In this document: positions 12,973 through 35,444 of the stretch, one piece after another
How the letters are laid out: the number at the start of each line of letters is the position of its first letter
How positions within the stretch are numbered: position 1 is the stretch's first letter
Origin: Promethearchaeota archaeon
Lineage (GTDB): Archaea; Asgardarchaeota; Lokiarchaeia; Sigyniarchaeales; SOKP01
Direction: 5' to 3'
Assembly (NCBI GenBank): GCA_016839555.1
Contig: JAEOUA010000007.1
Coordinates: 192,001-256,000 of the forward strand
DNA length: 64,000 nucleotides
Notes under the pieces: model-generated
What the model was told of the DNA's origin: nothing
What the model saw: only the letters and a program-made list of their open reading frames with translations
The model's database searches: none
Translations under genes and position numbers: made by a program

Positions 12973-13770
12973 ATGAAAAAAATTAAAAAAGAATATGTGT
13001 GTCCCCCTGGAAAGAAATCTAAAGTCGTAATTGAAGATATTTCAATTAAAATTAAAGAAGGAGCTACTTTTATCTTGGGATTTGCCAGTTTAGGTTTATT
13101 GGGGTCTATAATTGGAAATACCTTTATTGACCAAGTTCCAGATATTAAAGAAATCGGGTTTATTACTTCAGAATTCCTTCCTCCTATATCCACGTTTTAT
13201 GATGGAGTGTTAAAATCCCCGTTTCGACTATACTATTCTGAAGAATATAATATAATTATTGGAATATCTGAAGTACCATTTAATATATCCTCCGCTTATA
13301 ATGATTTAGCAAAAACTATATGTAACTGGGCATTATCTGATGATGTAAAGGCAAAGGAAATAGTGGTGTTTCAAGGAATACCTCAAAAAGGAATGATTGA
13401 TGAATTTCCAGTATATTATGCATCCCAAGATAATAAAATTGATAATTTAGAAAAAGATGGGGTTAAAAAAGTCAAAAAAGGCATAATAACAGGACCAGAA
13501 GCTACAATAATTAATGAAGCATTAACCAATAAATTGAAACCTCTTGCTTTTTTTACTCCAGTTTATCAAATACCTACTCCAGAAGGAGCTGCTTCTATTA
13601 TAGAAGTATTAAATAAACATTATGATATGAACCTTAAAATAGATAAATTACTTGAACAAGGAAAAGAAATTAAAGAGAAGATGTTAGAACTCGCAGAAAA
13701 GGCAAGACAATATCAAAGAAAACAGATTCCAGAAGGGGAAGAAGATGAATACACTCAATATTACCAATAA
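12973..13770 (+). CDS. PAC2-family proteasome assembly chaperone (copy 1)
   Basis: GFASLGLLG, SEFLPP, GIITGP, PTPEGAA; C-terminal YYQ (HbYX). Confidence 0.88.
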   Translation: MKKIKKEYVCPPGKKSKVVIEDISIKIKEGATFILGFASLGLLGSIIGNTFIDQVPDIKEIGFITSEFLPPISTFYDGVLKSPFRLYYSEEYNIIIGISEVPFNISSAYNDLAKTICNWALSDDVKAKEIVVFQGIPQKGMIDEFPVYYASQDNKIDNLEKDGVKKVKKGIITGPEATIINEALTNKLKPLAFFTPVYQIPTPEGAASIIEVLNKHYDMNLKIDKLLEQGKEIKEKMLELAEKARQYQRKQIPEGEEDEYTQYYQ

Positions 13771-13919
13771 TAAATTTTTATTTGCTTTTTTATATATAAT
13801 CTTTAAGAAAAGAAGAAAGATTGAAAATTATCTTAATCCATAAAATTAATTTGATTTTTAAATCTTTTATATAATATCAATATATTTGAAAAAGAATGTT
13901 AAACAGGTAGAGAATCTAA

Positions 13920-14714
13920 ATGGTCATTAAAGAATATGTTTGTGATGCTGGAGAAAAAAGTAAGGTAGTAATAGAGGATTTCTCAGTAGAAATTAAGGAT
14001 GATTCCACAATCATTTTAGGGTTGGCGGGAATTGGACTTATTGGACCTATAATTGCAAATAGTTTGATTGAACAGATCCTTGATATTAAGGAAATAGGTT
14101 TTGTAACCAGCGAATACCTCCCTCCCATTTCTACATTTTATGATGGTATATTGAAACATCCATTTAGGATTTATTATTCCCCTCTCTATAATTTAATTGT
14201 GGGTATTTGCGAAGTACCTTTTGAAATATCCTCGGCTTATAATGATTTAGCGAAGACGATTAATAATTGGGCATTAAATGAGGATGTAAAAGCTAAACAA
14301 ATCGTAGTTTTTCAAGGAATCCCTCAAAGAGGCATGATAGATGAATTTCCTGTATATTATGCTGCAGAAGAAGAATTAATTGATTATCTTGAACAATTCA
14401 ACCTTAAAAAATTTGAGAAAGGCATTATTGTCGGACCGGAGTCAACCATTATTAATGAAACTTTAACAAATAAATTACAAGGATATGTTTTGTTTGCACC
14501 GGTTTATCAAATTCCCACTCCTGAGGCAGCAGCATCAATTATTAAGGTTCTAAATCAAATTTATAAAATGGATATAGACGTTAACCCATTACTCGAAGAA
14601 GGAAAAGAAATTAAAGAAAAGATGTTAGAACTTGCAGAAAAAGCACAAGAATATCGTAGAAAGCAATTATCTAGCAAAAGTGGAGGGGAAGAATATACAG
14701 AATATTATAGATGA
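13920..14714 (+). CDS. PAC2-family proteasome assembly chaperone (copy 2)
   Basis: Close paralogue of 12973..13770; C-terminal YYR (HbYX). Confidence 0.88.
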   Translation: MVIKEYVCDAGEKSKVVIEDFSVEIKDDSTIILGLAGIGLIGPIIANSLIEQILDIKEIGFVTSEYLPPISTFYDGILKHPFRIYYSPLYNLIVGICEVPFEISSAYNDLAKTINNWALNEDVKAKQIVVFQGIPQRGMIDEFPVYYAAEEELIDYLEQFNLKKFEKGIIVGPESTIINETLTNKLQGYVLFAPVYQIPTPEAAASIIKVLNQIYKMDIDVNPLLEEGKEIKEKMLELAEKAQEYRRKQLSSKSGGEEYTEYYR

Positions 14715-20513: not shown

Positions 20514-22355
20514 CTATTTCTTTTTATATTTCCGCTTTCTCTTACTCGATTTTGTTTTTATCCTCTTTCTTAACCTCTTTACAAGCTGAACCAATTTCTT
20601 TTTATCATGATAAAACCTGGTTGCCTTTTGATAATCGTTCACTTTTTTTTCATAATATAGTAAAAAGTCTTGCCAAAAATTTCCAGGTGTACATTTTATC
20701 GATAATCTTTTCAAAATTCCTTTACTCTCTTTTGGTTTTTTCAAAGAACACTCAATAATTTTCTCAAAAAGAAAGTGTCTAGCTTTTTTATACGCAATTT
20801 TTTTTTTCTCGTATATATCACTAACAGATACAAAGTCAATCCAATAGATTCTCCTCTTCTTTTCAGCCGTTTTCATTTCAAGCTTGATATCGATTGTTTG
20901 ATTCGCTAATCTTCTAATAAGAGAATAAACTGTTGCCTTTGATAATTTAGTACTTTTAATTAAATCTCTTTCTAATAATTCAATCGGATAGGGTTCACCC
21001 CGTCTAATATATTCACTTTTTAAAATTTTATGAATAATGATCATCGATTCATCTTCTTCGCTGACGGTTTCTTTTTGTAATCTTATAAACATAGATGTCT
21101 GTTGAGGTTTCATATAATATAGTATTAATGTAATTCCTAGAAATAGTATCATAAAAATTGATATAAGATATTTATCAGCCATTAAAATATCTCCTAAAAA
21201 TGTGATTTCTTGATTCAATACTAAATTTGTAAGAGCAAATCTCGTGAGAGTTTGAGCAGTAACACATCCGAGAAAAAATAAAATCAATCCGTCTCTTTTG
21301 AAAAACAAGATTGTCCAAGAATACGATTTCCCGAGTTTTATTATAACCCGATATAAAAATATTATAGAAACTATATATTCAATGATAAAAATATAAGTAA
21401 ATGCTGAACCGGTAGTACCAAATGCTGATTTTATTGCTGCGACTGTTTCAGGTCTTAAAATTAAAAAAATAGTTACTTGTAAAAGTTGGTAAAAAAAAAT
21501 AAAAAATACAATTAAAGAGAAGGTAAAATTATCAAACATACCCGCCCTTCTTGAGTCCAATTTACTTCTTGAAATTACTAACTCAAAGATAATAAAAACA
21601 AAAGTCATAATTAAACTGAAATATATAAAGGGCATAATAATACCCATTTCCGTATTATATACATTGATGGATTCGAAAGGATTATAAATACTAAAAAAAT
21701 CTAAAGTTAATATCACTAAAACCCCTCTATAAAAAAAAGATATAGTGACCAAAACAATAAGTATTATAAAAGGGATTATGAATATAAGAATTGATCTTGC
21801 TACAGAATATTTTTTAATAATTTTATATTCTATTTTTGTGGCAAATTTCCTCGAATACATATAGTATCTGCTAGATAAAAGGATAATCCAAATTAACGAT
21901 AAAGCCAATAGATAGCTTATATAATTGATAATTGATGACGTGAAAAAGAATAAGAAATAAAATCCAGCAATTATAATAGGAAAGATGACCAGCTGCTTAA
22001 TAGCTGTATATTTTTCAAACAAAAAATACCTCACACGGTCATTATTTAATATTAATGAAAGAGTAATAAAAAACGCACAAATAGCGTTTCCGAAATAGAA
22101 GGGATCTCCAAAAGTTAATGCTCTAACAATGAAATGATTGGGATCATCAATTCCCCATAATAATATAAATGAATAGAATATAAAGAAAATATAAAGACCT
22201 ATAAATTTTTTACTGAAAGCAAATGATTTGGGAGGTTTTTCGCCTCCTTTTGTATAGATTTGATGATATATATATTTATCTTTAAAATTATTAAATTTTT
22301 CATTAGTTTTTTCCTTAAATTGTTGAAGAGTAGACTTTTCTTTAGAAGATACCAT
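20514..22355 (-). CDS. Polytopic membrane protein with a C-terminal HTH-like domain and basic tail
   Basis: About 10-11 TM segments, then TKLSKATVYSLIRRL (HTH recognition helix) and a Lys/Arg-rich end. Confidence 0.7.
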   Translation of the reverse strand: MVSSKEKSTLQQFKEKTNEKFNNFKDKYIYHQIYTKGGEKPPKSFAFSKKFIGLYIFFIFYSFILLWGIDDPNHFIVRALTFGDPFYFGNAICAFFITLSLILNNDRVRYFLFEKYTAIKQLVIFPIIIAGFYFLFFFTSSIINYISYLLALSLIWIILLSSRYYMYSRKFATKIEYKIIKKYSVARSILIFIIPFIILIVLVTISFFYRGVLVILTLDFFSIYNPFESINVYNTEMGIIMPFIYFSLIMTFVFIIFELVISRSKLDSRRAGMFDNFTFSLIVFFIFFYQLLQVTIFLILRPETVAAIKSAFGTTGSAFTYIFIIEYIVSIIFLYRVIIKLGKSYSWTILFFKRDGLILFFLGCVTAQTLTRFALTNLVLNQEITFLGDILMADKYLISIFMILFLGITLILYYMKPQQTSMFIRLQKETVSEEDESMIIIHKILKSEYIRRGEPYPIELLERDLIKSTKLSKATVYSLIRRLANQTIDIKLEMKTAEKKRRIYWIDFVSVSDIYEKKKIAYKKARHFLFEKIIECSLKKPKESKGILKRLSIKCTPGNFWQDFLLYYEKKVNDYQKATRFYHDKKKLVQLVKRLRKRIKTKSSKRKRKYKKK

Positions 22356-22558: not shown

Positions 22559-22846
22559 ATGAGAAGTATGTCACAAAATACGGATAATAAAGAAAATCTG
22601 ATTAATTTGGTTAAAGATGCTATCGCATTATTATGTGAAAAAAACATTTCTGAGGTTGTCATACTCTCCTCTTATAAAATTTCTTCTGTTTTAAACGATA
22701 ATTATGGAGTGGATATAAGAGTAGACAAGATAGGGCGGTTGTTGTCCCGTTTAGCTAAAAGTAACAAATTAAAAAGACTTAAAACAAACATTCCTAAATA
22801 TAAATTACATATTTCTCAATTACCTATGCTAAAATTTCAGTCGTGA
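22559..22846 (+). CDS. Small winged-helix-like protein
   Basis: LSSYKIS...KIGRLLSRLAK...PKY pattern. Confidence 0.55.
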   Translation: MRSMSQNTDNKENLINLVKDAIALLCEKNISEVVILSSYKISSVLNDNYGVDIRVDKIGRLLSRLAKSNKLKRLKTNIPKYKLHISQLPMLKFQS

Positions 22847-22883: not shown

Positions 22884-24206
22884 TTATAAATTTTCAATCT
22901 TTTTTATTTTTTCTTCAATTCTATTTTTAATCTCCGAAAACGTGTTTTCTATTAATTCAATTTCTGAGTATAAATTATTGAACAATTCCATTATCTCAAT
23001 ATTATTTTTCTCTGCCCTTTCCTGTAATTTGACTATTATTTCTTCGAAATTATTTTTTATTTGTTCGGGCATTGTTATAATTGATTCATTAAGTATTTGA
23101 GCTTTCTCTGCTAAATTTTTCATCTGATTTTTAGAAAATTCACTCATTTCACTAAATTTTTTCATAATCTCTTGAAAATCCCGATAATTATTAGTGACTT
23201 GATTTTTTATGGATTCTATTAGTGATTCCTTAATCATGGTATATTTTCTCTTAGTGTCTTCAATAATTTTGTTAAAATCTTGAATTCGAGTATCGATAGA
23301 GCTAGATAATGATTCTTCAAAAATATTAAAAATAATTTTGAATTCCTCTTCGAATACTTTTTTATAATTGATTAAACCCCTAGAAATATTTTCTTTTATT
23401 TGAATGATACTCTCAAGTAATTTTTGATTTCCACTTAGTGTAGCGCTATTGAATTCTTCAGTCCATCTTATGATTTGCTGATTCATAATTCTCTCAACAG
23501 TATCCCCAAATTCGACATTAGCTTCCTTAAAATTAGAAAAGTAAAAAAGTTCTTCTACCATTTTTTCTTTTGTTTTAGGTATTTCTTGTAAATCTTTTTG
23601 CTTATCTTCAGATAGTTCTATTATTTCTTTAATTAAAATAGGATCTTCTTTTTGATAATCTTCTACAAATTTTTGAACCCATTTAAAATAATCCAAACTA
23701 TTGGGTTTTTCAATTTCATAGGGTAATTCATGATATTGACTATTGATACCTTGATGAAAATCATCTAATGTATATATCTTTAAGCCAAAATTATCATTTT
23801 TATCAATTAAATTAGGATCAAAAGCCACGCAAAATCCCAGAGGATTATCTTCATTTTGAAACTGAAGAAGATTATTAATATCTCTTTCACTTAATGATAA
23901 TCCATTATCAACATGTGAAATATAATTTCCAATGCCTTTCAATCCAGAGGCATTATATTTTTCTTTAATTTGAGCAATCTTTTCAAGGAGATAATTATCA
24001 GTGTTAAGGTTAATACCTTTGCCATGAGTAATTGGAATAGCGTTATTTATAATTATATCATTATTCTCAGATATATTTCCAATACATATTCCTAATACAT
24101 CATACCTCCGTCTAAGAATTATATTGCCAAATCTAAGTAGATGAGTGATCATATTTCTAAACGCCTCCTTCTTAATTATAACACGATTTTGTTTATTATT
24201 ATTCAT
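22884..24206 (-). CDS. MPN-domain protein with degenerate JAMM site and long helical/coiled-coil C-terminus
   Basis: YDVLG in place of EVMG, and GNYISHV-x6-S-x2-D in place of GWYHSHP; paralogue of 24211..25761. Confidence 0.85.
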   Translation of the reverse strand: MNNNKQNRVIIKKEAFRNMITHLLRFGNIILRRRYDVLGICIGNISENNDIIINNAIPITHGKGINLNTDNYLLEKIAQIKEKYNASGLKGIGNYISHVDNGLSLSERDINNLLQFQNEDNPLGFCVAFDPNLIDKNDNFGLKIYTLDDFHQGINSQYHELPYEIEKPNSLDYFKWVQKFVEDYQKEDPILIKEIIELSEDKQKDLQEIPKTKEKMVEELFYFSNFKEANVEFGDTVERIMNQQIIRWTEEFNSATLSGNQKLLESIIQIKENISRGLINYKKVFEEEFKIIFNIFEESLSSSIDTRIQDFNKIIEDTKRKYTMIKESLIESIKNQVTNNYRDFQEIMKKFSEMSEFSKNQMKNLAEKAQILNESIITMPEQIKNNFEEIIVKLQERAEKNNIEIMELFNNLYSEIELIENTFSEIKNRIEEKIKKIENL

Positions 24207-24210
24207 TGTT

Positions 24211-25761
24211 TTAATCCTCCCTCGTTTTCAATTTTTTTATCTTCTCGGATAATTTATTTTTATCATTTTGAAGTGTTTCGATTTTTTTGTTTAAATCTTT
24301 TACTTCATTTTTGATTTTTATAATCTCTTCTTGAAGAATTTTATTCTCCTCTTTAGATCTTGATAAATTATTATTTAGTTCTTCTTTTTCTTTTTTTAAG
24401 TTTTTAATTTTCATCTCAAAAGAATCTAATGTATTCTCTGAAATTGGAAATGATTCTTTTAATAAGTTCTGTAATGTGTTAACTTTTTCTTTAAATAATT
24501 TCATTTTCTCTTTAAATTCAATATTTAGCTTATCTTGATAAGATAAACTTTCATTAAGAATATTATTTTGAAGTTTTCCTAATGTTCCTCTAAATTCTTC
24601 CAATTTATTATTTTGAGCTTGTATTAGTTCTAATATTTTTGAATTTAATTCATTTAATTGTTGAAAATTATTTCTTCCAATATCAAATAAAGAATCATAT
24701 TCTAAAGCGGATTCTTTATATAAATTGTTTAAGGTAATGATAACCTTTTCTTGCATTTCTTTTTTAAAATTATCCAGTAATTCTTTACTTTTTATAATTT
24801 TTTTGTCTAATAATTCAAGTTTATCATTAATATAAAAATCTAAATTATCCAAATCCAATCTTAAATCTTCTTTAATGGATTCTAGAAGGACAGTCATATT
24901 ATTATTGATTGAATTCCTAATCAAAATGATATTCTCTTTCATTAATAAATTAAGAGTTATAATTTCCTCAATTAATTCATTACTCCAATTATTATAAAAA
25001 TTAGTAATTGGTCGGATTGAAGTTTCTATTAATTGAAAAATGCTTTTTTGTAAATGGGTAATTAAATATTCCGTATTTATATTTGGTTTATTTGCGATTA
25101 AATCTTCATCACTAGGAACGGAAACATTCCCAAATATGTCTATCTTCTCATTTAATTCAAATATGGGAGGCTCTTTAGTTTGAACACTATTAATTAGATA
25201 AATAATTTTTCTATAAAATTCAAGACTATTAGGAGGGTCTATAATCGTTTTGACTTCATGATAATGTGATGCATCTCCTTTGTAAGGATCATCTAACCTA
25301 AAAGTTCGAAATCCAGGATCATTTGGATTTTCTAAGTAAGTATGATCAAAAACAATTCCAATAGCACTGGGATTTGCGGTCTGCCATCCAAGCTGATTTA
25401 TTATATCAGTACCTGAAAAGAAAATTTTAAGTCCTGGATGAGAATGGTACCAACCAACACTAAACCAGCCTTTTTTAGCAAATTGCTCATCTACCGTTGA
25501 AAATTTTATATAATCCTCTGGGGCAAACCGTACCTCAATTGATCCTCCATGAGAAACGGGTACAACATTCTCAATTATAACATCTTTAATTTCTCCTTCT
25601 CCTTCAAGATAACCAATTAAAATTCCCATAACTTCTTTAAATTGGTCATAATTACGATTTTTTGAACCAAATCGTAAGACATGAACTAACATTTTATAAT
25701 AGGCTTCTGGTTTAATTCTTACTATAGACTCATCAGAGATATTAGATTTATGTGTTTTCAA
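24211..25761 (-). CDS. MPN+/JAMM metalloprotease (CSN5/Rpn11-like) with long coiled-coil C-terminus
   Basis: KEVMG...GWYHSHPGLKIFFSGTD is an intact JAMM motif; heptad-rich C-terminus. Confidence 0.92.
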   Translation of the reverse strand: MKTHKSNISDESIVRIKPEAYYKMLVHVLRFGSKNRNYDQFKEVMGILIGYLEGEGEIKDVIIENVVPVSHGGSIEVRFAPEDYIKFSTVDEQFAKKGWFSVGWYHSHPGLKIFFSGTDIINQLGWQTANPSAIGIVFDHTYLENPNDPGFRTFRLDDPYKGDASHYHEVKTIIDPPNSLEFYRKIIYLINSVQTKEPPIFELNEKIDIFGNVSVPSDEDLIANKPNINTEYLITHLQKSIFQLIETSIRPITNFYNNWSNELIEEIITLNLLMKENIILIRNSINNNMTVLLESIKEDLRLDLDNLDFYINDKLELLDKKIIKSKELLDNFKKEMQEKVIITLNNLYKESALEYDSLFDIGRNNFQQLNELNSKILELIQAQNNKLEEFRGTLGKLQNNILNESLSYQDKLNIEFKEKMKLFKEKVNTLQNLLKESFPISENTLDSFEMKIKNLKKEKEELNNNLSRSKEENKILQEEIIKIKNEVKDLNKKIETLQNDKNKLSEKIKKLKTRED

Positions 25762-25948: not shown

Positions 25949-27118
25949 CTATTTTTTTAGTTTTAAAATCCTTCTTTTATTGAATGAAATTGCTAAATGA
26001 AAACTCAATTCTGAAATCAAATATTTTAAACTAAAATATTTTCCTACATTTTGATATATAATTTTCAAACCTATAAAGAAAAAAATAATTATTATTAAAG
26101 AGATAAAAAATCCTTGACTAATAGTAAATTTTTGATAGAGTAAGGGAAATAGAAATTCATGAAGTATTAATATAGTAAGGGAATAATAAGAAAAATAGAA
26201 AAAGAATTTATATTCTCGCTTAAAATTAAAATTAATCCTTATTTCAATACTTAGCAAAATCAGAAAAAATATAAAATTAGTGCCTAATGAATATAATAAC
26301 CAACTAAATGAATTTCGTGAAAAATTATCGATGGGAATGAAAAGAAGAGAGATAATTATCAATAATGCGCTAATTAATAATAATGGATATATATTTGATC
26401 GAATGAATTCTTTATTAGTAATTTTTGTATTTTCATCGATAATTTTTTCATATATTATTTCTCCTAAAACATTTCCAAGCAAGAAAAACGGAAAAAAGCC
26501 AAGAATCGGGGTAAATAAAAATCCATTATAAAAAATAAAATAAACAAAATCTATTACACTTGTTATTACTATTTGATCACTCGGACTAATTAATATTTCT
26601 TTTGGGATAAAATAAAAAAAGATACCATAAAGAATTAAGAAAATGCTTGCTATCAAGACTCTAATATTTTTTTTATATTTCATCAGGGGCCACGCTAAAA
26701 TTATCGATACCGCAAGTGTTTGGAATATATTCCACGACCATAAATTTCCTATATATCCCCGATAAAGAAAAGCTCGAAAATTATAATAAAAAAACCCAAT
26801 TAAAAACAAAAACAATGCTTGTAAGAAATATTTTAAACGTATTTCTTTATAATAGTCCTTCTGATTAAAATTTGGTGCATTTTTTGCTTTTATACTTTTC
26901 ATTTGATAAGATAACATGATACTGATTCCGGAAACAAACACAAAACCCTCAGCTTCAGGGCTAACATAAAGAATAATTACGGATAATAAATGAAAAAAAC
27001 TGTTAGTTGATAAACTAGGAGCGCCTCCAGGTATTCCCCACATCCACGTGTGAAGTAAAATCATATAAATAATTACGTAACCACGAAAAATATCAATACA
27101 TTTTAACCTTGTTTTCAT
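25949..27118 (-). CDS. HGSNAT/DUF1624-like membrane acyltransferase (copy 1)
   Basis: RLKCIDIFRG...MILLH, FVFVSGIS, IFQTLA, YSLTILILH. Confidence 0.8.
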   Translation of the reverse strand: MKTRLKCIDIFRGYVIIYMILLHTWMWGIPGGAPSLSTNSFFHLLSVIILYVSPEAEGFVFVSGISIMLSYQMKSIKAKNAPNFNQKDYYKEIRLKYFLQALFLFLIGFFYYNFRAFLYRGYIGNLWSWNIFQTLAVSIILAWPLMKYKKNIRVLIASIFLILYGIFFYFIPKEILISPSDQIVITSVIDFVYFIFYNGFLFTPILGFFPFFLLGNVLGEIIYEKIIDENTKITNKEFIRSNIYPLLLISALLIIISLLFIPIDNFSRNSFSWLLYSLGTNFIFFLILLSIEIRINFNFKREYKFFFYFSYYSLTILILHEFLFPLLYQKFTISQGFFISLIIIIFFFIGLKIIYQNVGKYFSLKYLISELSFHLAISFNKRRILKLKK

Positions 27119-27250
27119 GTTTCTTCTAATTTTTTTATTTTTTTAAAATATGATCTTTAAAAATTAAGATTATTTTTTGGGAGAAAAAAGCCGTTTTATT
27201 GCTCTAATATATTTATATTTAAAAAGAAATTCATTTTAAATTCTTTAATA

Positions 27251-28381
27251 TTAATGTTCTGCTATAATTTTGTTGCTAAGATAAGTTGCTAATCGTGCGA
27301 TTTGTATTTTTAAGCTGAAATAGGGACCTACCTTTATATACATAATTTTTAGAAGAATAAAAAATCCCAATAAAATCATTATTGATACTATTAATCCTAT
27401 AAGAGGAGTAAATCTATCATACACGAGATAAAATAGAAAATGTTGCATTAAATATGCGGTCAATGAATAATATGAAAAATAATAAAAGAATTTATATTCT
27501 CTCTTAAATTTAAAGATTTCTAATTTTTCAATAGAAAACAAAAACAAAAAAAGAACAAGATCCGCTCCTAAAGAATATAATAACCATGAATATGTATTTA
27601 TTGTAAAAATATCGGCTGGAAGAAAAAATGCAATAACCATTAATGGAATACTAATTAAAAGGATTGGTTTTGCGAGTGATTTTATAAATTTTTTATCTGG
27701 AATTTTAGTTTCTTCGTTAATTGATTTTTCATATAAAATTTCACCTAATACATTCCCAAAAAGAAAAAATGGGAAGTATAATAATATTGGACAGAAAATA
27801 AACCCATTATAGAAAATAAAATAAAAGAAACTTAAAGGATCTGATATTATGAAGCGATCTCCGGGGCCACTTAACATTTCCGGGTCAATAAAGGCAAATA
27901 AAACATAAAATAAAATTAATAGACTAATTCCAATTATAATTTTTATTATTTTTTTAAGCTTTCTTAAGGGCCATATTAATAACATAGATACGGCAAGCGT
28001 TTGAAAGATAGTCCATAACCATAAATCTTCAAATCGCTTCCAAAAAAGTAATTGTTCTAAATTATAAGAAAATACTCCAATAAACAAAACTATTAATGCT
28101 CTCAGAAAATGTCTTAAGCGGAGTTGTTTATAATCATAATTATAAGAACTCTTATTTTTTATGGCCTGAATTCTTTTTTGATAAGATAGTGTAAAGCTTA
28201 CACCAGAAATCAATATAAATCCTTCTGCTTCTGGTGAAATATAATAGAGTGGTCTGGTTATTATTATTAGAATTATATTGGGAGTATATCCAGATGCCAT
28301 CCCCCATGACCATGTATGTGCAACTATTAAATATGCTATTATGAAACCCCTATAAATATCAATACTTTTTAATCTTTCCAT
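27251..28381 (-). CDS. HGSNAT/DUF1624-like membrane acyltransferase (copy 2)
   Basis: RLKSIDIYRG, SPEAEGF shared with copy 1; tandem paralogue. Confidence 0.8.
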   Translation of the reverse strand: MERLKSIDIYRGFIIAYLIVAHTWSWGMASGYTPNIILIIITRPLYYISPEAEGFILISGVSFTLSYQKRIQAIKNKSSYNYDYKQLRLRHFLRALIVLFIGVFSYNLEQLLFWKRFEDLWLWTIFQTLAVSMLLIWPLRKLKKIIKIIIGISLLILFYVLFAFIDPEMLSGPGDRFIISDPLSFFYFIFYNGFIFCPILLYFPFFLFGNVLGEILYEKSINEETKIPDKKFIKSLAKPILLISIPLMVIAFFLPADIFTINTYSWLLYSLGADLVLFLFLFSIEKLEIFKFKREYKFFYYFSYYSLTAYLMQHFLFYLVYDRFTPLIGLIVSIMILLGFFILLKIMYIKVGPYFSLKIQIARLATYLSNKIIAEH

Positions 28382-28637: not shown

Positions 28638-29231
28638 TTAAGTGAGTTTTTTTCCGCAATATGGGCAATACTTAAATTCAAGATCGCGGCCACAATAAGG
28701 ACAATATTTTGATGGCCTTTTGGATTGAGCAACCTCAGTTTGCCCTTTTTGGGGCTCCTTTTGCATTGTTGGTACCGCTGAAGGTATTTCTGGTAAGATC
28801 CTTTTTGATCCCGCCATTTCTGTTTTTTCTTTTTTACGGGTTTTCATTCTTTCCTGGAAAATCTTGCGTTTTTCTTCTTCGCTCGTTGTATGTTTTGTTT
28901 CAAATTTTTCCTGTGTTTTAGAGCTAATCGCTTTTATCTCTTTTTTTTCTAATTTTTGTTTAGCCTGATTCATTAACGCTTGGGCAGATTTCATAACTTG
29001 ATGGGGGTTGATATTGGGAATAGCTGAGGCTTGTAATACCCATCCTACAATATAATTTATATTGGGGGTACTTTGCCCCTCATCCAATTCATAAACTTTA
29101 GATGCTAATACATTATTCCCTTTTACTAATCTACTGGCCCATTGATTATTAATAAGGCCCAATTGGATTTTATAGGAGGTTCCGGAAACCCCTAATTGGT
29201 TTGTTAATGGTTCAAACTCTCCTTCTACCAA
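28638..29231 (-). CDS. Protein with C-terminal double CPxCG zinc ribbon
   Basis: YCPYCGRDLEFKYCPYCGKKL after a charged low-complexity linker; TTG start. Confidence 0.8.
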   Translation of the reverse strand: MVEGEFEPLTNQLGVSGTSYKIQLGLINNQWASRLVKGNNVLASKVYELDEGQSTPNINYIVGWVLQASAIPNINPHQVMKSAQALMNQAKQKLEKKEIKAISSKTQEKFETKHTTSEEEKRKIFQERMKTRKKEKTEMAGSKRILPEIPSAVPTMQKEPQKGQTEVAQSKRPSKYCPYCGRDLEFKYCPYCGKKLT

Positions 29232-29502: not shown

Positions 29503-30456
29503 ATGACTATTATAATTCCTAAAAAAGCCTATAACACGATTGTAGCCTCCTCAGTAAGATATGCTAATTCTCGCTTCCCTCAAGATGATTGGTTAGAGGT
29601 CTATGGAGTATTCACGGGGAAAATAGAGAAAGATGATTTAGTTATCTCAGCAGCATATCCCATTACCCACCAAGAAAAAAAACCAGAAGATATAATAGAT
29701 AAAGTTTATTGGTCTGATGAAGATTATGAATCTTTTAGTATAATTGATGATGAAGCCTTTTCGAAAGGACTTTTTACCGTAGGATGGTGGCATTCTCACC
29801 CTGGTTTTAAAGTAATGATGTCTCAGCTTGACGTAAAAACAACATTATCTTATCAACAAAATAATCCGAAAGCAATTTCTTTAGTTTTCAACCCAAATCG
29901 TTTAATACGTCAAATTGAACTACCCTATAAGAAAGGAGACCCCGTAAAGCAGTTAAAAAATGATCCTGGTTTTAAAATTTTTCGATTAGATGATGTAAAC
30001 AAAGGAATTGAAGCATCATATCATGAAGAGATATATGAAATACAAGGTTATGAAAATATGGAACAATTAATAAAGGAAACCCAGAATTTTATTATTAATG
30101 TGACAAATTTTTTTCCAAAAAACAATATATTCGACCATTATCAGAGAATTGTTGATAAAAAAATAAATGAATTAAATTCTAAATTAATGGGTACAGAATC
30201 TTACTTAAAAACTCTAATTCAAAAAGGAGAAGCACACCGAACTAAAGAAGTATTAAATAATCAGATAAAAGATATTCGAAAATATGTTGCTCAGACTTAT
30301 ATCGCTATTGAAAATATCAGAGAATTTATGGATTATTTAGAATTTAAGGAAAGGGATAAGGTAATCACGAAAGTCCAACAAATTCTAGTTCAATGGGATG
30401 ATGCTGCTTCAAATTCTTCAAAAAAATTTGATGAAATGGCAAAGAATTACACATGA
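29503..30456 (+). CDS. MPN+/JAMM metalloprotease, third paralogue
   Basis: LEVYG...GWWHSHPGFKVMMSQLD; shares NDPGFxxFRLDD...YHE with 24211..25761. Confidence 0.92.
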   Translation: MTIIIPKKAYNTIVASSVRYANSRFPQDDWLEVYGVFTGKIEKDDLVISAAYPITHQEKKPEDIIDKVYWSDEDYESFSIIDDEAFSKGLFTVGWWHSHPGFKVMMSQLDVKTTLSYQQNNPKAISLVFNPNRLIRQIELPYKKGDPVKQLKNDPGFKIFRLDDVNKGIEASYHEEIYEIQGYENMEQLIKETQNFIINVTNFFPKNNIFDHYQRIVDKKINELNSKLMGTESYLKTLIQKGEAHRTKEVLNNQIKDIRKYVAQTYIAIENIREFMDYLEFKERDKVITKVQQILVQWDDAASNSSKKFDEMAKNYT

Positions 30457-30595: not shown

Positions 30596-32803
30596 TTGAT
30601 TTTTCGAAAGAACTTCCCCTTTACGGCGATTCTTGGACAAGAAAAAATGAAAAGGGCTTTAATATTAAATGTTATTGATCCTCAAATTGGCGGCGTACTC
30701 TTGCAAGGTCATCAAGGAACAGGAAAATCTACAGCGGTACGCTCGCTTGTTGAAGTTATGCCTCAAATTGAGGTAGTTGTGGGATGCCCCTTTTCTTGTG
30801 ATCCCAACTCTGATATTGATGAATTATGTGTGGAATGCCAAGAAAAGAAGGAAAAAGGAGAACTTCAAACAAAAAAGCGAGGAATGAAGCTGGTTAACCT
30901 TCCTCTTGGAGTTACAGAAGATATGGTGTGTGGTTCTCTTTCAATTGATAAAGTTCTTGCTGAAGGAATATCTGAATTGCATCCAGGACTCTTGGCGAAA
31001 GCAAATCGTGGTATTCTCTATATTGATGAAATAAATCTTCTCCAAGATCATATAGTAGATACATTATTAGATGCATCTGCTTCTGGTATTAATATCATTG
31101 AAAGAGAAGGAATTTCAGTGACACATCCCGCAAGATTTATATTAGTAGGAAGCATGAATCCAGAGGAAGGAGAATTAAGGCCACAGATCGCAGACCGTCT
31201 CGGACTTGAAGTAAAGATAGAAGCTCCCCGTGATCCCGAACTACGGGCAGAGATTACCAAACGCGTTATTGATTTTAATGATACTCCAAGGGAATTTATA
31301 GAGCGCAATGAAGAAGAACAAAAAAATTTAAAGGAACGCATCAGAAAAGCAAGAAAAATCGTAAAAGATATAAAAATTCCCAGTAATGTTTATGAACTAG
31401 TTTCTAAAATAGTAAATGAATTAGAGATTTTTTCTCAGAGGGCAGATATCACATTTATTCGATGTGCACGTGCTAATGCGGCTTTTAATTTGAGAAACGT
31501 GATTAGTGCAGAAGATTTAGATTTTGCAATGGATTTAGTATTTGAACATAGAATAAAATCATTACATTATGAAATGACTCCCAAAGAAATTAAAGATAAA
31601 TTAAAAGAAGTTTATGGAAAAATTCAAGAAGCTTACGAAGATCCCAATATTTATCAGCCGAATGATGAAACTGAAGGGCCTTTAAAGCATTCTGATGAGC
31701 CTCAAAAAGAATTTAAACGACAATCTTTAGACCCAGATAAAGTAGATATTCCAGAATCAGAGGAGCAAAAATTCCCACCTCCTAAATATGAAGATAAAAG
31801 AAAAAGAGATGCCAGTCCAGCTGGCGGTTGGAAAGTAAAAGATATCCCCTCAGATGAGGACTTTAATTTAACATATGATGATTTCAATACCATGCCTTTT
31901 ATCTACAGAATGGAGAAAAAAATGAATTCAATATTAGATGGAATACGTAAGCAAAGAAAAATATCAGATTATGGTGGGAGAGGAATTGGAAGAAGAATCA
32001 AAATTGCCTCATCTCAAAAGGGAAGATATGTTTCATTTCGTCATCCCATTAATTCGCATCCCAAATCTTTAGCTTTAGATGCTACAATACGATCTTATTT
32101 AAAAAATACGTTGTATAATAAATCTGATATTAGTTTTCCAATTCGATTTGATAAATATGATCTACGAGATAAAATTTTTGAATATCGTGCTCCATTAGCT
32201 CTCTTTTTTGTTTTAGATTGTTCAGCATCAATGTATTATGTTATCAAGCAAATGAAAGATGTAATTTTATCACTTCAACGAGAAGGATATAGAAAGAAAG
32301 ATAAAATCAGTTTGATAGCATTTCGAGGAAAGCAAGCGGTGGTTCTGCAAAAACCAACAGTATCGTTTCGCAAGGCAATTCATAAATTAAACAATTTAGA
32401 AGGAAGGAGCTACACTCCCATGGCGAGTGGTTTAGAAAAGTGTAAAGAATTAATAAAAATTGAGAAATTAAAAAATAGGAACATTATTCCAGTCATCTTT
32501 ATATGCTCCGATTGTGGAGCCAATATCTCTCACAAGCATCCCGATTTAATTGCTCAGATTGAAAGCGATTATGCTTTAATTGTCGAAGAACTAAAGGAGT
32601 TAACAAAATCATTATCACGTCGGGATATTCATATTATTGTTTTAGAGCCGAAAAAGAGCTATGCTACACGAGCTTTAGGTGTTCACCCTTATAGCGCTAA
32701 TAAAATTAAAGAAAATTTCAAGAAATACGGAAACGCTGACATTTACAAATTTGACGAGTATCATCCCGAAAGTTTAATCCTAAAACTTAAGAAGATCTTA
32801 TAA
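30596..32803 (+). CDS. ChlI/ChlD-type AAA+ ATPase fused to a vWA domain (chelatase-like)
   Basis: FPFTAILGQ, GHQGTGKS, LPLGVTED, LYIDEIN, NPEEGELRPQ; MIDAS DCSAS. Confidence 0.92.
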   Translation: MIFRKNFPFTAILGQEKMKRALILNVIDPQIGGVLLQGHQGTGKSTAVRSLVEVMPQIEVVVGCPFSCDPNSDIDELCVECQEKKEKGELQTKKRGMKLVNLPLGVTEDMVCGSLSIDKVLAEGISELHPGLLAKANRGILYIDEINLLQDHIVDTLLDASASGINIIEREGISVTHPARFILVGSMNPEEGELRPQIADRLGLEVKIEAPRDPELRAEITKRVIDFNDTPREFIERNEEEQKNLKERIRKARKIVKDIKIPSNVYELVSKIVNELEIFSQRADITFIRCARANAAFNLRNVISAEDLDFAMDLVFEHRIKSLHYEMTPKEIKDKLKEVYGKIQEAYEDPNIYQPNDETEGPLKHSDEPQKEFKRQSLDPDKVDIPESEEQKFPPPKYEDKRKRDASPAGGWKVKDIPSDEDFNLTYDDFNTMPFIYRMEKKMNSILDGIRKQRKISDYGGRGIGRRIKIASSQKGRYVSFRHPINSHPKSLALDATIRSYLKNTLYNKSDISFPIRFDKYDLRDKIFEYRAPLALFFVLDCSASMYYVIKQMKDVILSLQREGYRKKDKISLIAFRGKQAVVLQKPTVSFRKAIHKLNNLEGRSYTPMASGLEKCKELIKIEKLKNRNIIPVIFICSDCGANISHKHPDLIAQIESDYALIVEELKELTKSLSRRDIHIIVLEPKKSYATRALGVHPYSANKIKENFKKYGNADIYKFDEYHPESLILKLKKIL

Positions 32804-34685: not shown

Positions 34686-35444
34686 CTAAATTAGAGATTT
34701 GATTTTTGCTACATAACTTTTTATCTTAGTATCTTTTCCCTCAGGCACGGCAATACATAAGATACGAGACTCATCTAACTCATGTACAATTATAGATCCT
34801 AATGCACCTGAAATTATGCTATATTCATGAATTTCATTAAATAATAATACATTAAATAAAGAATTTATAGCAGAAAGCATAGCTGAAAGCATAGGCTCCG
34901 CCATTGTGGATTGGACTCTAATTGGTATCCCATCTTTAGTAATAATTGCGATTATTAATGCATTTGGTATTGCTAGTTTTAATTTTACAAAAATTTCCTC
35001 TTTTAAGATATCTGAAGTTTCAACCATTGCAGAAATTTTGAGCGAAAATGCTCTTAAATTTGAACTGTACTTATTTATTCCTTCTAATTCTGCCAATTCA
35101 CGATTTAGATAAGCAATTAATGTAATATATTCTGTTAAAATAGATATAATAATCTTGTTTTTTCCTACAACTAAATCATAGGAAATATCTTGGTTTAGTG
35201 AATTCTTGAGCAATTTTGATGATAAGAAGAGCATACTACTATTTGCAGCCGTAATTTCACCCCATTTCAAATCAACATCTTGTTTAACTTGACTTGCGAT
35301 TAATACTCCTTCATGAGTTCCACAAAAAATTCCAATTATCGCGTTATCATCTTCTAATTGTTTTTTAATTAACTCCTCTATTTCAATTTTCAATTTTTGC
35401 ATTTTGCTATTTCCTTGACTCATGATAAATAAAAAAAAAATCAT
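34686..35444 (-). CDS. Tandem Roadblock/LC7-domain protein
   Basis: Two units: GTHEGVLIAS...ITAANSSM and IITKDGIPI...LSAMLSA. Confidence 0.78.
   Translation of the reverse strand: MIFFLFIMSQGNSKMQKLKIEIEELIKKQLEDDNAIIGIFCGTHEGVLIASQVKQDVDLKWGEITAANSSMLFLSSKLLKNSLNQDISYDLVVGKNKIIISILTEYITLIAYLNRELAELEGINKYSSNLRAFSLKISAMVETSDILKEEIFVKLKLAIPNALIIAIITKDGIPIRVQSTMAEPMLSAMLSAINSLFNVLLFNEIHEYSIISGALGSIIVHELDESRILCIAVPEGKDTKIKSYVAKIKSLI

Follow-up and report, generated by a model that had tools for sequence, protein, structure and literature searches.

Paired JAMM-family paralogues with long helical tails, one with a degenerate active site, as candidate subunits of a stalked isopeptidase in one branch of Lokiarchaeia

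The JAMM deubiquitinases of the eukaryotic proteasome lid, the COP9 signalosome and the BRISC and BRCA1-A complexes all work together with a dead paralogue. In the BRCC36 complexes the MPN heads meet via the N-terminal helix, and mutants carrying L23R and L27R lose function (PMC4579573), while the Rpn8-Rpn11 pair has been described as antiparallel (PMC6043591). The nearest characterised archaeal relative of the proteins considered here, CsRpn11 of Caldiarchaeum subterraneum (PDB 6FJU/6FJV), forms a parallel homodimer via H1 and H4 in the crystal, and an MPN+/MPN- organisation was stated in the same work as not known in archaea (PMC6043591); in our full-text literature searches, likewise, no such pair was described for Asgard archaea. 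Here we describe two adjacent genes, A and B, of a Promethearchaeota archaeon, lying in a stretch of 64,000 nucleotides (contig C6:192001-256000, GenBank JAEOUA010000007.1; hereafter the window) of a 3.7-Mb genome of about 27% G+C. On balance we consider it probable that their products are subunits of one stalked heteromeric JAMM isopeptidase, one that is found in a single family-to-order-level branch of Lokiarchaeia. As in BRCC36-Abraxas and BRCC36-KIAA0157 (ABRO1), the cores of BRCA1-A and BRISC, an MPN+ protein would be joined to an MPN- paralogue, and this logic of an active and an inactive MPN subunit is equally that of Rpn11-Rpn8 and CSN5-CSN6.

The interval 22884-25761 of the window is filled by two minus-strand open reading frames, and the database proteins closest to the pair carry Lokiarchaeota or Promethearchaeota labels. 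The genes, their junction and their MPN domains are as follows.

24211..25761, minus strand: gene A, 516 aa with a TTG start, a predicted MPN+ protein with a long helical tail (open reading frame, translation, Pfam, 116 orthologues)
22884..24206, minus strand: gene B, 440 aa, the paralogue of A, its MPN domain carrying a degenerate JAMM site and followed by a long helical tail (open reading frame, Pfam, 119 orthologues)
24207..24220, minus strand: A-B junction, with GGAGG, stop and spacer (sequence)
25177..25740, minus strand: MPN domain of A including H4, the helix that closes it, residues 8-195 (AlphaFold2 secondary structure and per-residue confidence, pLDDT; profile matches to Rpn11, CSN5 and BRCC36)
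25633-25635, minus strand: putative catalytic Glu of A, E43 (translation)
25405..25446, minus strand: predicted JAMM zinc-binding/catalytic core of A, HSHPGLKIFFSGTD, H106-D119 (translation)
23649..24188, minus strand: MPN domain of B with its closing helix H4, residues 7-186 (AlphaFold2, pLDDT mostly 84-95; Foldseek)
24099-24101, minus strand: D36 of B, replacing the catalytic Glu (translation)
23880..23921, minus strand: degenerate core of B, ISHVDNGLSLSERD, I96-D109, with the first zinc-binding His changed to Ile (translation)

The TAA stop of A (24211-24213) is followed by four nucleotides (AACA) and then by the ATG of B, and a GGAGG sits at 24216-24220, inside the end of A and 10 nt upstream of that ATG. 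Gene A encodes a complete E...HxH-x7-S-x2-D motif (E43, H106-S-H108, S116 and D119), whose five JAMM residues are invariant in the 116 orthologues; it matches the Pfam families JAB (PF01398, 52.2 bits against a cut-off of 22.5) and Prok-JAB (PF14464, 31.2 bits against 25), and its AlphaFold2 model has the MPN fold. By fold, profile and complete motif the A protein would thus belong to the JAMM/MPN+ family. In B, D36 stands in place of the catalytic Glu and I96 in place of the first His, while H98, S106 and D109 are retained, and the match to PF01398 is barely above the cut-off (25.2 bits against 22.5). With an MPN fold, zinc-binding and catalytic residues lost, and retention under selection, the B protein of this genome fits the description of an MPN- pseudoenzyme, as judged from its sequence. 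A BLASTP alignment of A with B (31% identity over 200 aa, E=3e-21) spans the MPN domain and the next helix, and in the tree the two clades stand as sisters whose topologies mirror each other; we therefore take the two genes to be sister paralogues. The original prediction, drawn from the letters of this DNA, had described two co-oriented frames 4 nt apart, homologous through and past the MPN domain, the first with the full JAMM set and the second with Asp for the catalytic Glu and ISH for HSH, and each of these details was recovered, the shared sequence blocks that it cited falling within the BLASTP alignment.

The coupling of the two genes extends well beyond the window. Twenty loci were fetched from relatives, and 17 of these, together with the window, gave 18 A/B pairs; in all 18, A precedes B on the same strand with a gap of -26 to +17 nt, and the NCBI locus tags of A and B are adjacent in at least six further metagenome-assembled genomes. 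The B profile finds a match in every one of the 68 sampled genomes of the window's GTDB family, and among the matches listed B is full-length and lies beside A; elsewhere in the phylum the same profile yields matches at the level of the MPN domain only. In the sister family, two genomes carry a tandem pair with both copies intact and the second genes group with B at a moderate support of 84, from which it follows that the duplication predates the split of the two GTDB families. Fused A-B proteins were absent at E<=1e-10 among proteins of 771-2200 aa, a search that is weak as evidence. A few fragments aside, B orthologues are mostly 438-471 aa long, and in their alignment (119 sequences) 16 columns are invariant and 42 nearly so, the invariant ones lying mostly in the interface helices described below.

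The two paralogues have evolved unequally. Over the first 230 residues the mean identity is 39% for B and 61% for A, B being lower in 153 of 153 genome pairs, and the nearest B orthologue is just 69% identical; B thus evolves faster than A. The active-site columns of B are highly variable, the entropy of the first-His column being 2.16 bits and that of the Asp column 1.63, and the full JAMM set (E, H, H, S/T, D) is present in 56 of the 119 orthologues. When the B tree is rooted with A, intact sites occupy the basal branches and the intact or degenerate label needs six changes, at least four of which are required by branches with good support. The substitutions differ from one degenerate clade to the next (e.g. 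ESHSA, ENHSA, EIH.D, ESHSE, EIRTT), the B of the window belonging to an 18-member clade in which Ile or some other residue has replaced the first His. On this tree the JAMM site of B was lost at least four to six separate times from an intact ancestor. What B has kept lies elsewhere: its conserved residues cluster in H1 and H4 (R17, R25, P168, L171, W176, F180, E182, D183 and K186), and the predicted interface positions have an entropy of 0.91 bits against 1.51 in the rest of the MPN domain (Mann-Whitney p=0.0007), a conservation that is independent of the structural model's own confidence. Even with a broken site, B retains the THG motif of the Ins-1 region, the second His and S97.

For the complex itself, full-length A and B were modelled together with both alignments, taking the median of three runs and comparing with three controls. 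The A+B model has an ipSAE of 0.72 and the best control 0.00; 58 of the 80 complexes with known structures attained this mark, as did 2 of the 110 mismatched pairs, counts that hold only roughly because custom alignments were used. Between runs at least 71% of the contacts recur, and the partner has a pLDDT of 68 or more. In the model the heads touch through residues 18-36 and 174-199 of A and 16-31 and 165-191 of B, that is, through H1 and H4 of both subunits, and the tails through A 256-441 and B 248-430, with contacts recurring every 11 residues along about 185 residues in parallel. Given the coupled gene order, the co-occurrence in 68 of 68 genomes, the conservation of the B interface and a complex model that passes its controls, an A-B heteromer is the best reading, and the heteromer put forward by the original prediction is supported to this extent, as a predicted complex.

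The geometry that came with that suggestion did not fare as well. H1 and H4 are the interface elements in Rpn11-Rpn8 (PMC4140821) and in the A-B model alike, yet the pairs with the lowest error in the model (A186-B176, A190-B180 and A193-B183) place the two H4 helices parallel, while Rpn8-Rpn11 is described as antiparallel (PMC6043591), so an Rpn8-Rpn11-type arrangement, which the original prediction had named as a check, is not established. It is the crystal homodimer of CsRpn11, the best PDB match of the A profile, that presents the same elements in the same orientation. CsRpn11 differs in being a short single protein encoded in an operon with ubiquitin, E1, E2 and E3 genes, whereas the coupled paralogues A and B have tails of 214-287 residues and are encoded outside the ubiquitin operon of their genome. 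The likeness to the BRCC36 complexes extends past the heads, since there too the helices that follow the MPN domains of both subunits pack together; the BRCC36 bundle is short (a4 and a5), however, while A and B are modelled as paired over about 185 residues in a rod with an 11-residue repeat.

AlphaFold2 models built from the family alignments give A and B the same plan: an MPN domain, H4, a linker of 30-40 residues and a nearly unbroken helix (230-305 and 311-515 in A, 227-439 in B).

25075..25176, minus strand: linker of A, residues 196-229, of low confidence, with the motif EPPIxELNE (pLDDT below 50 at 195-225; E202, N204 and E205 invariant)
24214..25074, minus strand: predicted helical tail of A, residues 230-516, with 3.63-residue periodicity (AlphaFold2, complex model, periodicity)
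23529..23648, minus strand: linker of B, residues 187-226, of low confidence, with the motifs PILIKE and LQEIP (pLDDT below 50 at 187-230; I209 and P210 invariant)
22887..23528, minus strand: predicted helical tail of B, residues 227-440, with 3.63-residue periodicity (AlphaFold2, complex model, periodicity)

The hydrophobicity of the tails has its strongest period at 3.63-3.65 residues and next to no power at 3.5. This period is shared by 93% of the tails among 116 A orthologues and by 98% among 119 of B; 500 shuffles attained it three times for A and never for B. Because the period is 3.63 and not 3.5, the tails are better described as hendecad-like, with the 11-residue repeat of apolipoproteins, than as heptad coiled coils, and the heptad assignment was dropped. 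The same period explains the weak profile matches to the apolipoproteins ApoA-I and ApoA-IV (E 3e-7 to 5e-10) and the PF01442 label recorded on many orthologues. Of the helical or heptad tails of 250-300 aa first proposed for both proteins, the helical character therefore stands in the AlphaFold2 models, whereas the heptads do not, nor does the length in the case of B, whose tail is about 214 aa. The C-terminal ~65-75 residues of A (about 452-516; 24214-24410, minus strand) are strongly charged, lie beyond the end of B and are free in the A-B model; this segment could bind a second A or some other partner.

Where the degenerate subunit came from can be approached through its relatives. The profile of A matches, in order, Caldiarchaeum Rpn11 (E=1.4e-13), yeast Rpn11 (5e-11), BRCC36 (1e-9) and CSN5 (1.5e-9), and that of the B MPN domain scores 45 bits with CSN5, 43 with Rpn11 and 25 with Rpn8; relative to the Rpn11-Rpn8 and CSN5-CSN6 pairs, the best eukaryotic matches are thus Rpn11, then CSN5, for A and CSN5 and Rpn11 for B, at E 5e-11 to ~1e-9. 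CSN6, Abraxas/KIAA0157 and eIF3f/h were absent from the B search at E<=1, and the top Foldseek matches of the B model are the Rpn11 chains of Rpn8-Rpn11 crystals. Orthology of B with the eukaryotic MPN- subunits (Rpn8, CSN6, eIF3f/h, Abraxas) is not supported by these profile scores or by its sisterhood to A. Since B is sister to A and its profile is closer to CSN5 and Rpn11 than to Rpn8, the dead partner arose from an active Rpn11/CSN5-like enzyme inside Lokiarchaeia, separately from the inactive partners Rpn8, CSN6 and Abraxas; of the two origins originally offered, ancestral or convergent, it is the convergent one that these comparisons support, and not the ancestral. The surroundings differ as well. 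Homologues of BRCC45, MERIT40 or RAP80, or an SHMT2 context, were not seen here, and B, unrelated to Abraxas or KIAA0157, appears to be catalytically intact still in about half of its lineages, in which respect the pair also departs from the BRCC36 pairs. A match to the PCI domain (PF01399) above the cut-off was not found in the genome (best 20.7 bits against 22), nor a PCI gene in the conserved block, and a lid-type helical bundle or horseshoe is therefore not expected.

Ubiquitin-like genes, E1 and E2 are encoded in the genome, with predicted ubiquitin precursors at G000:C4:257113-257298, C1:183546-183731 and C6:156767-156940. About 55 kb from the pair and outside the window (G000:C6:156767-159750) lies a Caldiarchaeum-type operon of ubiquitin-like, E1, E2 and Rpn11-like JAMM genes, in which the E1 is of the ThiF family (a 412-aa frame), the E2 matches UQ_con at 86 bits, and the JAMM protein is an intact, Rpn11-like one of 268 aa with a charged N-terminal extension. 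The genome has six MPN genes, with the site broken in B only. Also outside the window (G000:C2:22245-23870) is a gene for a 541-aa protein with an intact MPN+ domain and a C-terminal half that, by eye, resembles helical repeats of the TPR type; because PCI subunits have TPR-like arms, an MPN-TPR fusion, if true, would be interesting.

Putting these observations together, it can be hypothesized that the MPN heads dock via a four-helix contact, H1 and H4 coming from each subunit, and that the tails run side by side and in parallel for about 185 residues as a nearly untwisted rod with an 11-residue repeat. At about 0.15 nm per helical residue, the rod is estimated to be roughly 28 nm long. A would be the isopeptidase, holding the sole obligatory active site, and B a former second active subunit which, here and independently in several other lineages, may now serve as a non-catalytic scaffold or regulator. 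The substrate is most likely a ubiquitin or ubiquitin-like conjugate, a view based on the ubiquitin-like, E1 and E2 genes of the genome and on heads that are closest to Rpn11, CSN5 and BRCC36. The rod, the C-terminal extension of A and the conserved linker motifs would probably hold the heads away from an anchoring partner or surface. That the pair is obligate and deubiquitinase-like, as the original prediction had it, stays at the level of inference.

The locus is also larger than the two genes originally described, with a third paralogue and a wider conserved block around the pair.

29503..30456, plus strand: gene C, a third paralogue of 317 aa with an intact JAMM site and a shorter helical tail (Pfam, tree, neighbourhood)
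28638..29231, minus strand: zinc-ribbon protein of 197 aa with a double CPYCG (Pfam, neighbourhood)
20514..22355, minus strand: polytopic membrane protein of 613 aa, predicted to cross the membrane with numerous helices (conserved close to the pair in 11 of the 20 loci)
22559..22846, plus strand: small open reading frame of 95 aa in convergent orientation to B (recurring in 13 of the 20 loci)
30596-32803, plus strand: ChlI/ChlD-type AAA+ and VWA fusion, right after C (in 11 of 20 loci)

C stands divergently beside the A-B pair in most of the relatives' loci, and the zinc-ribbon gene is directly upstream of A in 16 of 20; the cluster of the zinc-ribbon protein is restricted to Promethearchaeota (Protein Atlas, score 0.82, for its own cluster only). 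Two genes for Acyl_transf_3 membrane acyltransferases (25949-28381, minus strand) lie between the zinc-ribbon gene and A in the window and in one congener only, and they look like an insertion, judging by the way the zinc-ribbon gene abuts A in the other relatives. The 613-aa membrane protein has a cytoplasmic C-terminal region that is basic, rich in lysine and arginine, and matched no Pfam, NCBIfam or PADLOC family; nor did NCBIfam assign an informative family to A, B or C or to the small neighbouring genes. The fusion protein after C looks chelatase-like, scoring 579 bits with TIGR02442 (putative cobaltochelatase), under the cut-off of 779; it may be functionally linked to C or may be a bystander. 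An ATP-grasp gene also recurs near the pair. Farther along the window, a 252-aa protein (34686-35444, minus strand), conserved in 6 of 20 loci, has a weak Roadblock/LC7 match at 21.3 bits, below the cut-off, and two tandem PAC2 (proteasome assembly chaperone 2) paralogues of 265 and 264 aa are encoded at 12973-14714 (plus strand).

Several points weigh against a stalked heteromer with one necessary active site. Resemblance to MPN dimers of known structure may account in part for the pass of the complex model; the test is also passed by near relatives of a true partner, and with A+B the only combination modelled, A-A and B-B homodimers remain compatible with it. CsRpn11, despite its crystal dimer, is monomeric in solution and active alone (PMC6043591). 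A two-stranded rod is no better an explanation of the 3.63-residue tail period and the weak apolipoprotein matches than are amphipathic helices that bind a surface. With a separate Rpn11-like JAMM encoded in the ubiquitin/E1/E2 operon, ubiquitin processing does not need A-B. Nor is the inactive B fixed: about half of the B orthologues are intact, and an enzyme with a pseudoenzyme is therefore not the general state of the family; the dead state of B in this genome is one of those independent losses.

One alternative is that A and B are not partners at all, each forming homo-oligomers through the same H1/H4 surface and tail, with A a stand-alone stalked isopeptidase and B a separate non-catalytic binder (e.g. 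of a ubiquitin-like tail) in the same pathway. The interface helices are common to the paralogues, so the model does not separate a heterodimer from homodimers, and there is the precedent of CsRpn11 with its parallel H1/H4 homodimer in crystals (PMC6043591). The THG motif, second His and S97 that B keeps despite its broken site would also suit a protein with business of its own. We nevertheless regard separate homo-oligomers as unlikely, given that the gene coupling of A and B is tight and universal, that catalytic loss was repeated in B only and never in A, as expected if one site per complex suffices, and that the paired tail segments of the two agree in length and in periodicity.

A second alternative, to which we attach a similarly low probability, accepts the heteromer and gives it other business, either with another ubiquitin-like protein (of the SAMP, Urm1 or MoaD type) or another peptide bond, or with tails that act as amphipathic helices on a membrane or lipid surface. 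It draws on the tail period with its near absence of power at 3.5, on the ApoA-I and ApoA-IV matches and PF01442 labels, on the conserved polytopic membrane neighbour, and on the dedicated Rpn11-like gene in the ubiquitin operon of the same contig. As to the substrate, the heads are nearest to the ubiquitin- and NEDD8-specific Rpn11, CSN5 and BRCC36 and not to desampylases (21.8 bits with NF041370 against a cut-off of 130); as to the surface, the apolipoprotein matches may be compositional, and the model pairs the hydrophobic stripes of both tails with one another.

An anti-virus defence system with a JAB isopeptidase, of the Cap3 type of CBASS (cyclic-oligonucleotide-based anti-phage signalling system) or of the Bil type, was also considered and rejected as very improbable: it would account for the PADLOC JAB matches, which are weak (20.8 bits for A, 28.1 for C) and absent for B, while the conserved block has no E1/E2, CD-NTase or effector gene and the pair is vertically inherited and universal in its family, unlike patchy defence islands. 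That B is a recently inactivated copy heading for loss, a lineage-specific decay which the original prediction named as counting against itself, is scarcely credible and was rejected because the pair is conserved family-wide, for although B evolves faster than A and is highly variable at its catalytic columns, it is full-length among the matches listed from all 68 genomes, comes from a duplication older than the split of two families, and keeps its length tightly along with its invariant and nearly invariant columns.

Returning to the stalked A-B heteromer, a bolder and distinctly tentative extension, which we think doubtful as it stands, would be that close archaeal relatives of eukaryotes still have an ancestral heterodimer of two active JAMM subunits, from which the second site was repeatedly discarded while the interface was kept, leaving a living series for the origin of MPN+/MPN- pairs. 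The apolipoprotein-like double stalk with its 11-residue repeat could then keep the heads at a distance of about 30 nm from an anchor, membrane-bound or not, for example the zinc-ribbon protein or the polytopic membrane protein encoded nearby. If true, the stalk would give archaea a means of localising deubiquitination to a surface. On the main reading, whether or not this extension holds, the logic of an active subunit with a dead paralogue appears to have evolved separately in the archaeal group closest to eukaryotes, and active/active and active/dead states both survive in related genomes. Such natural pairs would make it testable what the second subunit contributes, why its active site is dispensable and which residues are kept instead, and they would add predicted stalked isopeptidases to the ubiquitin toolkit of Asgard archaea.

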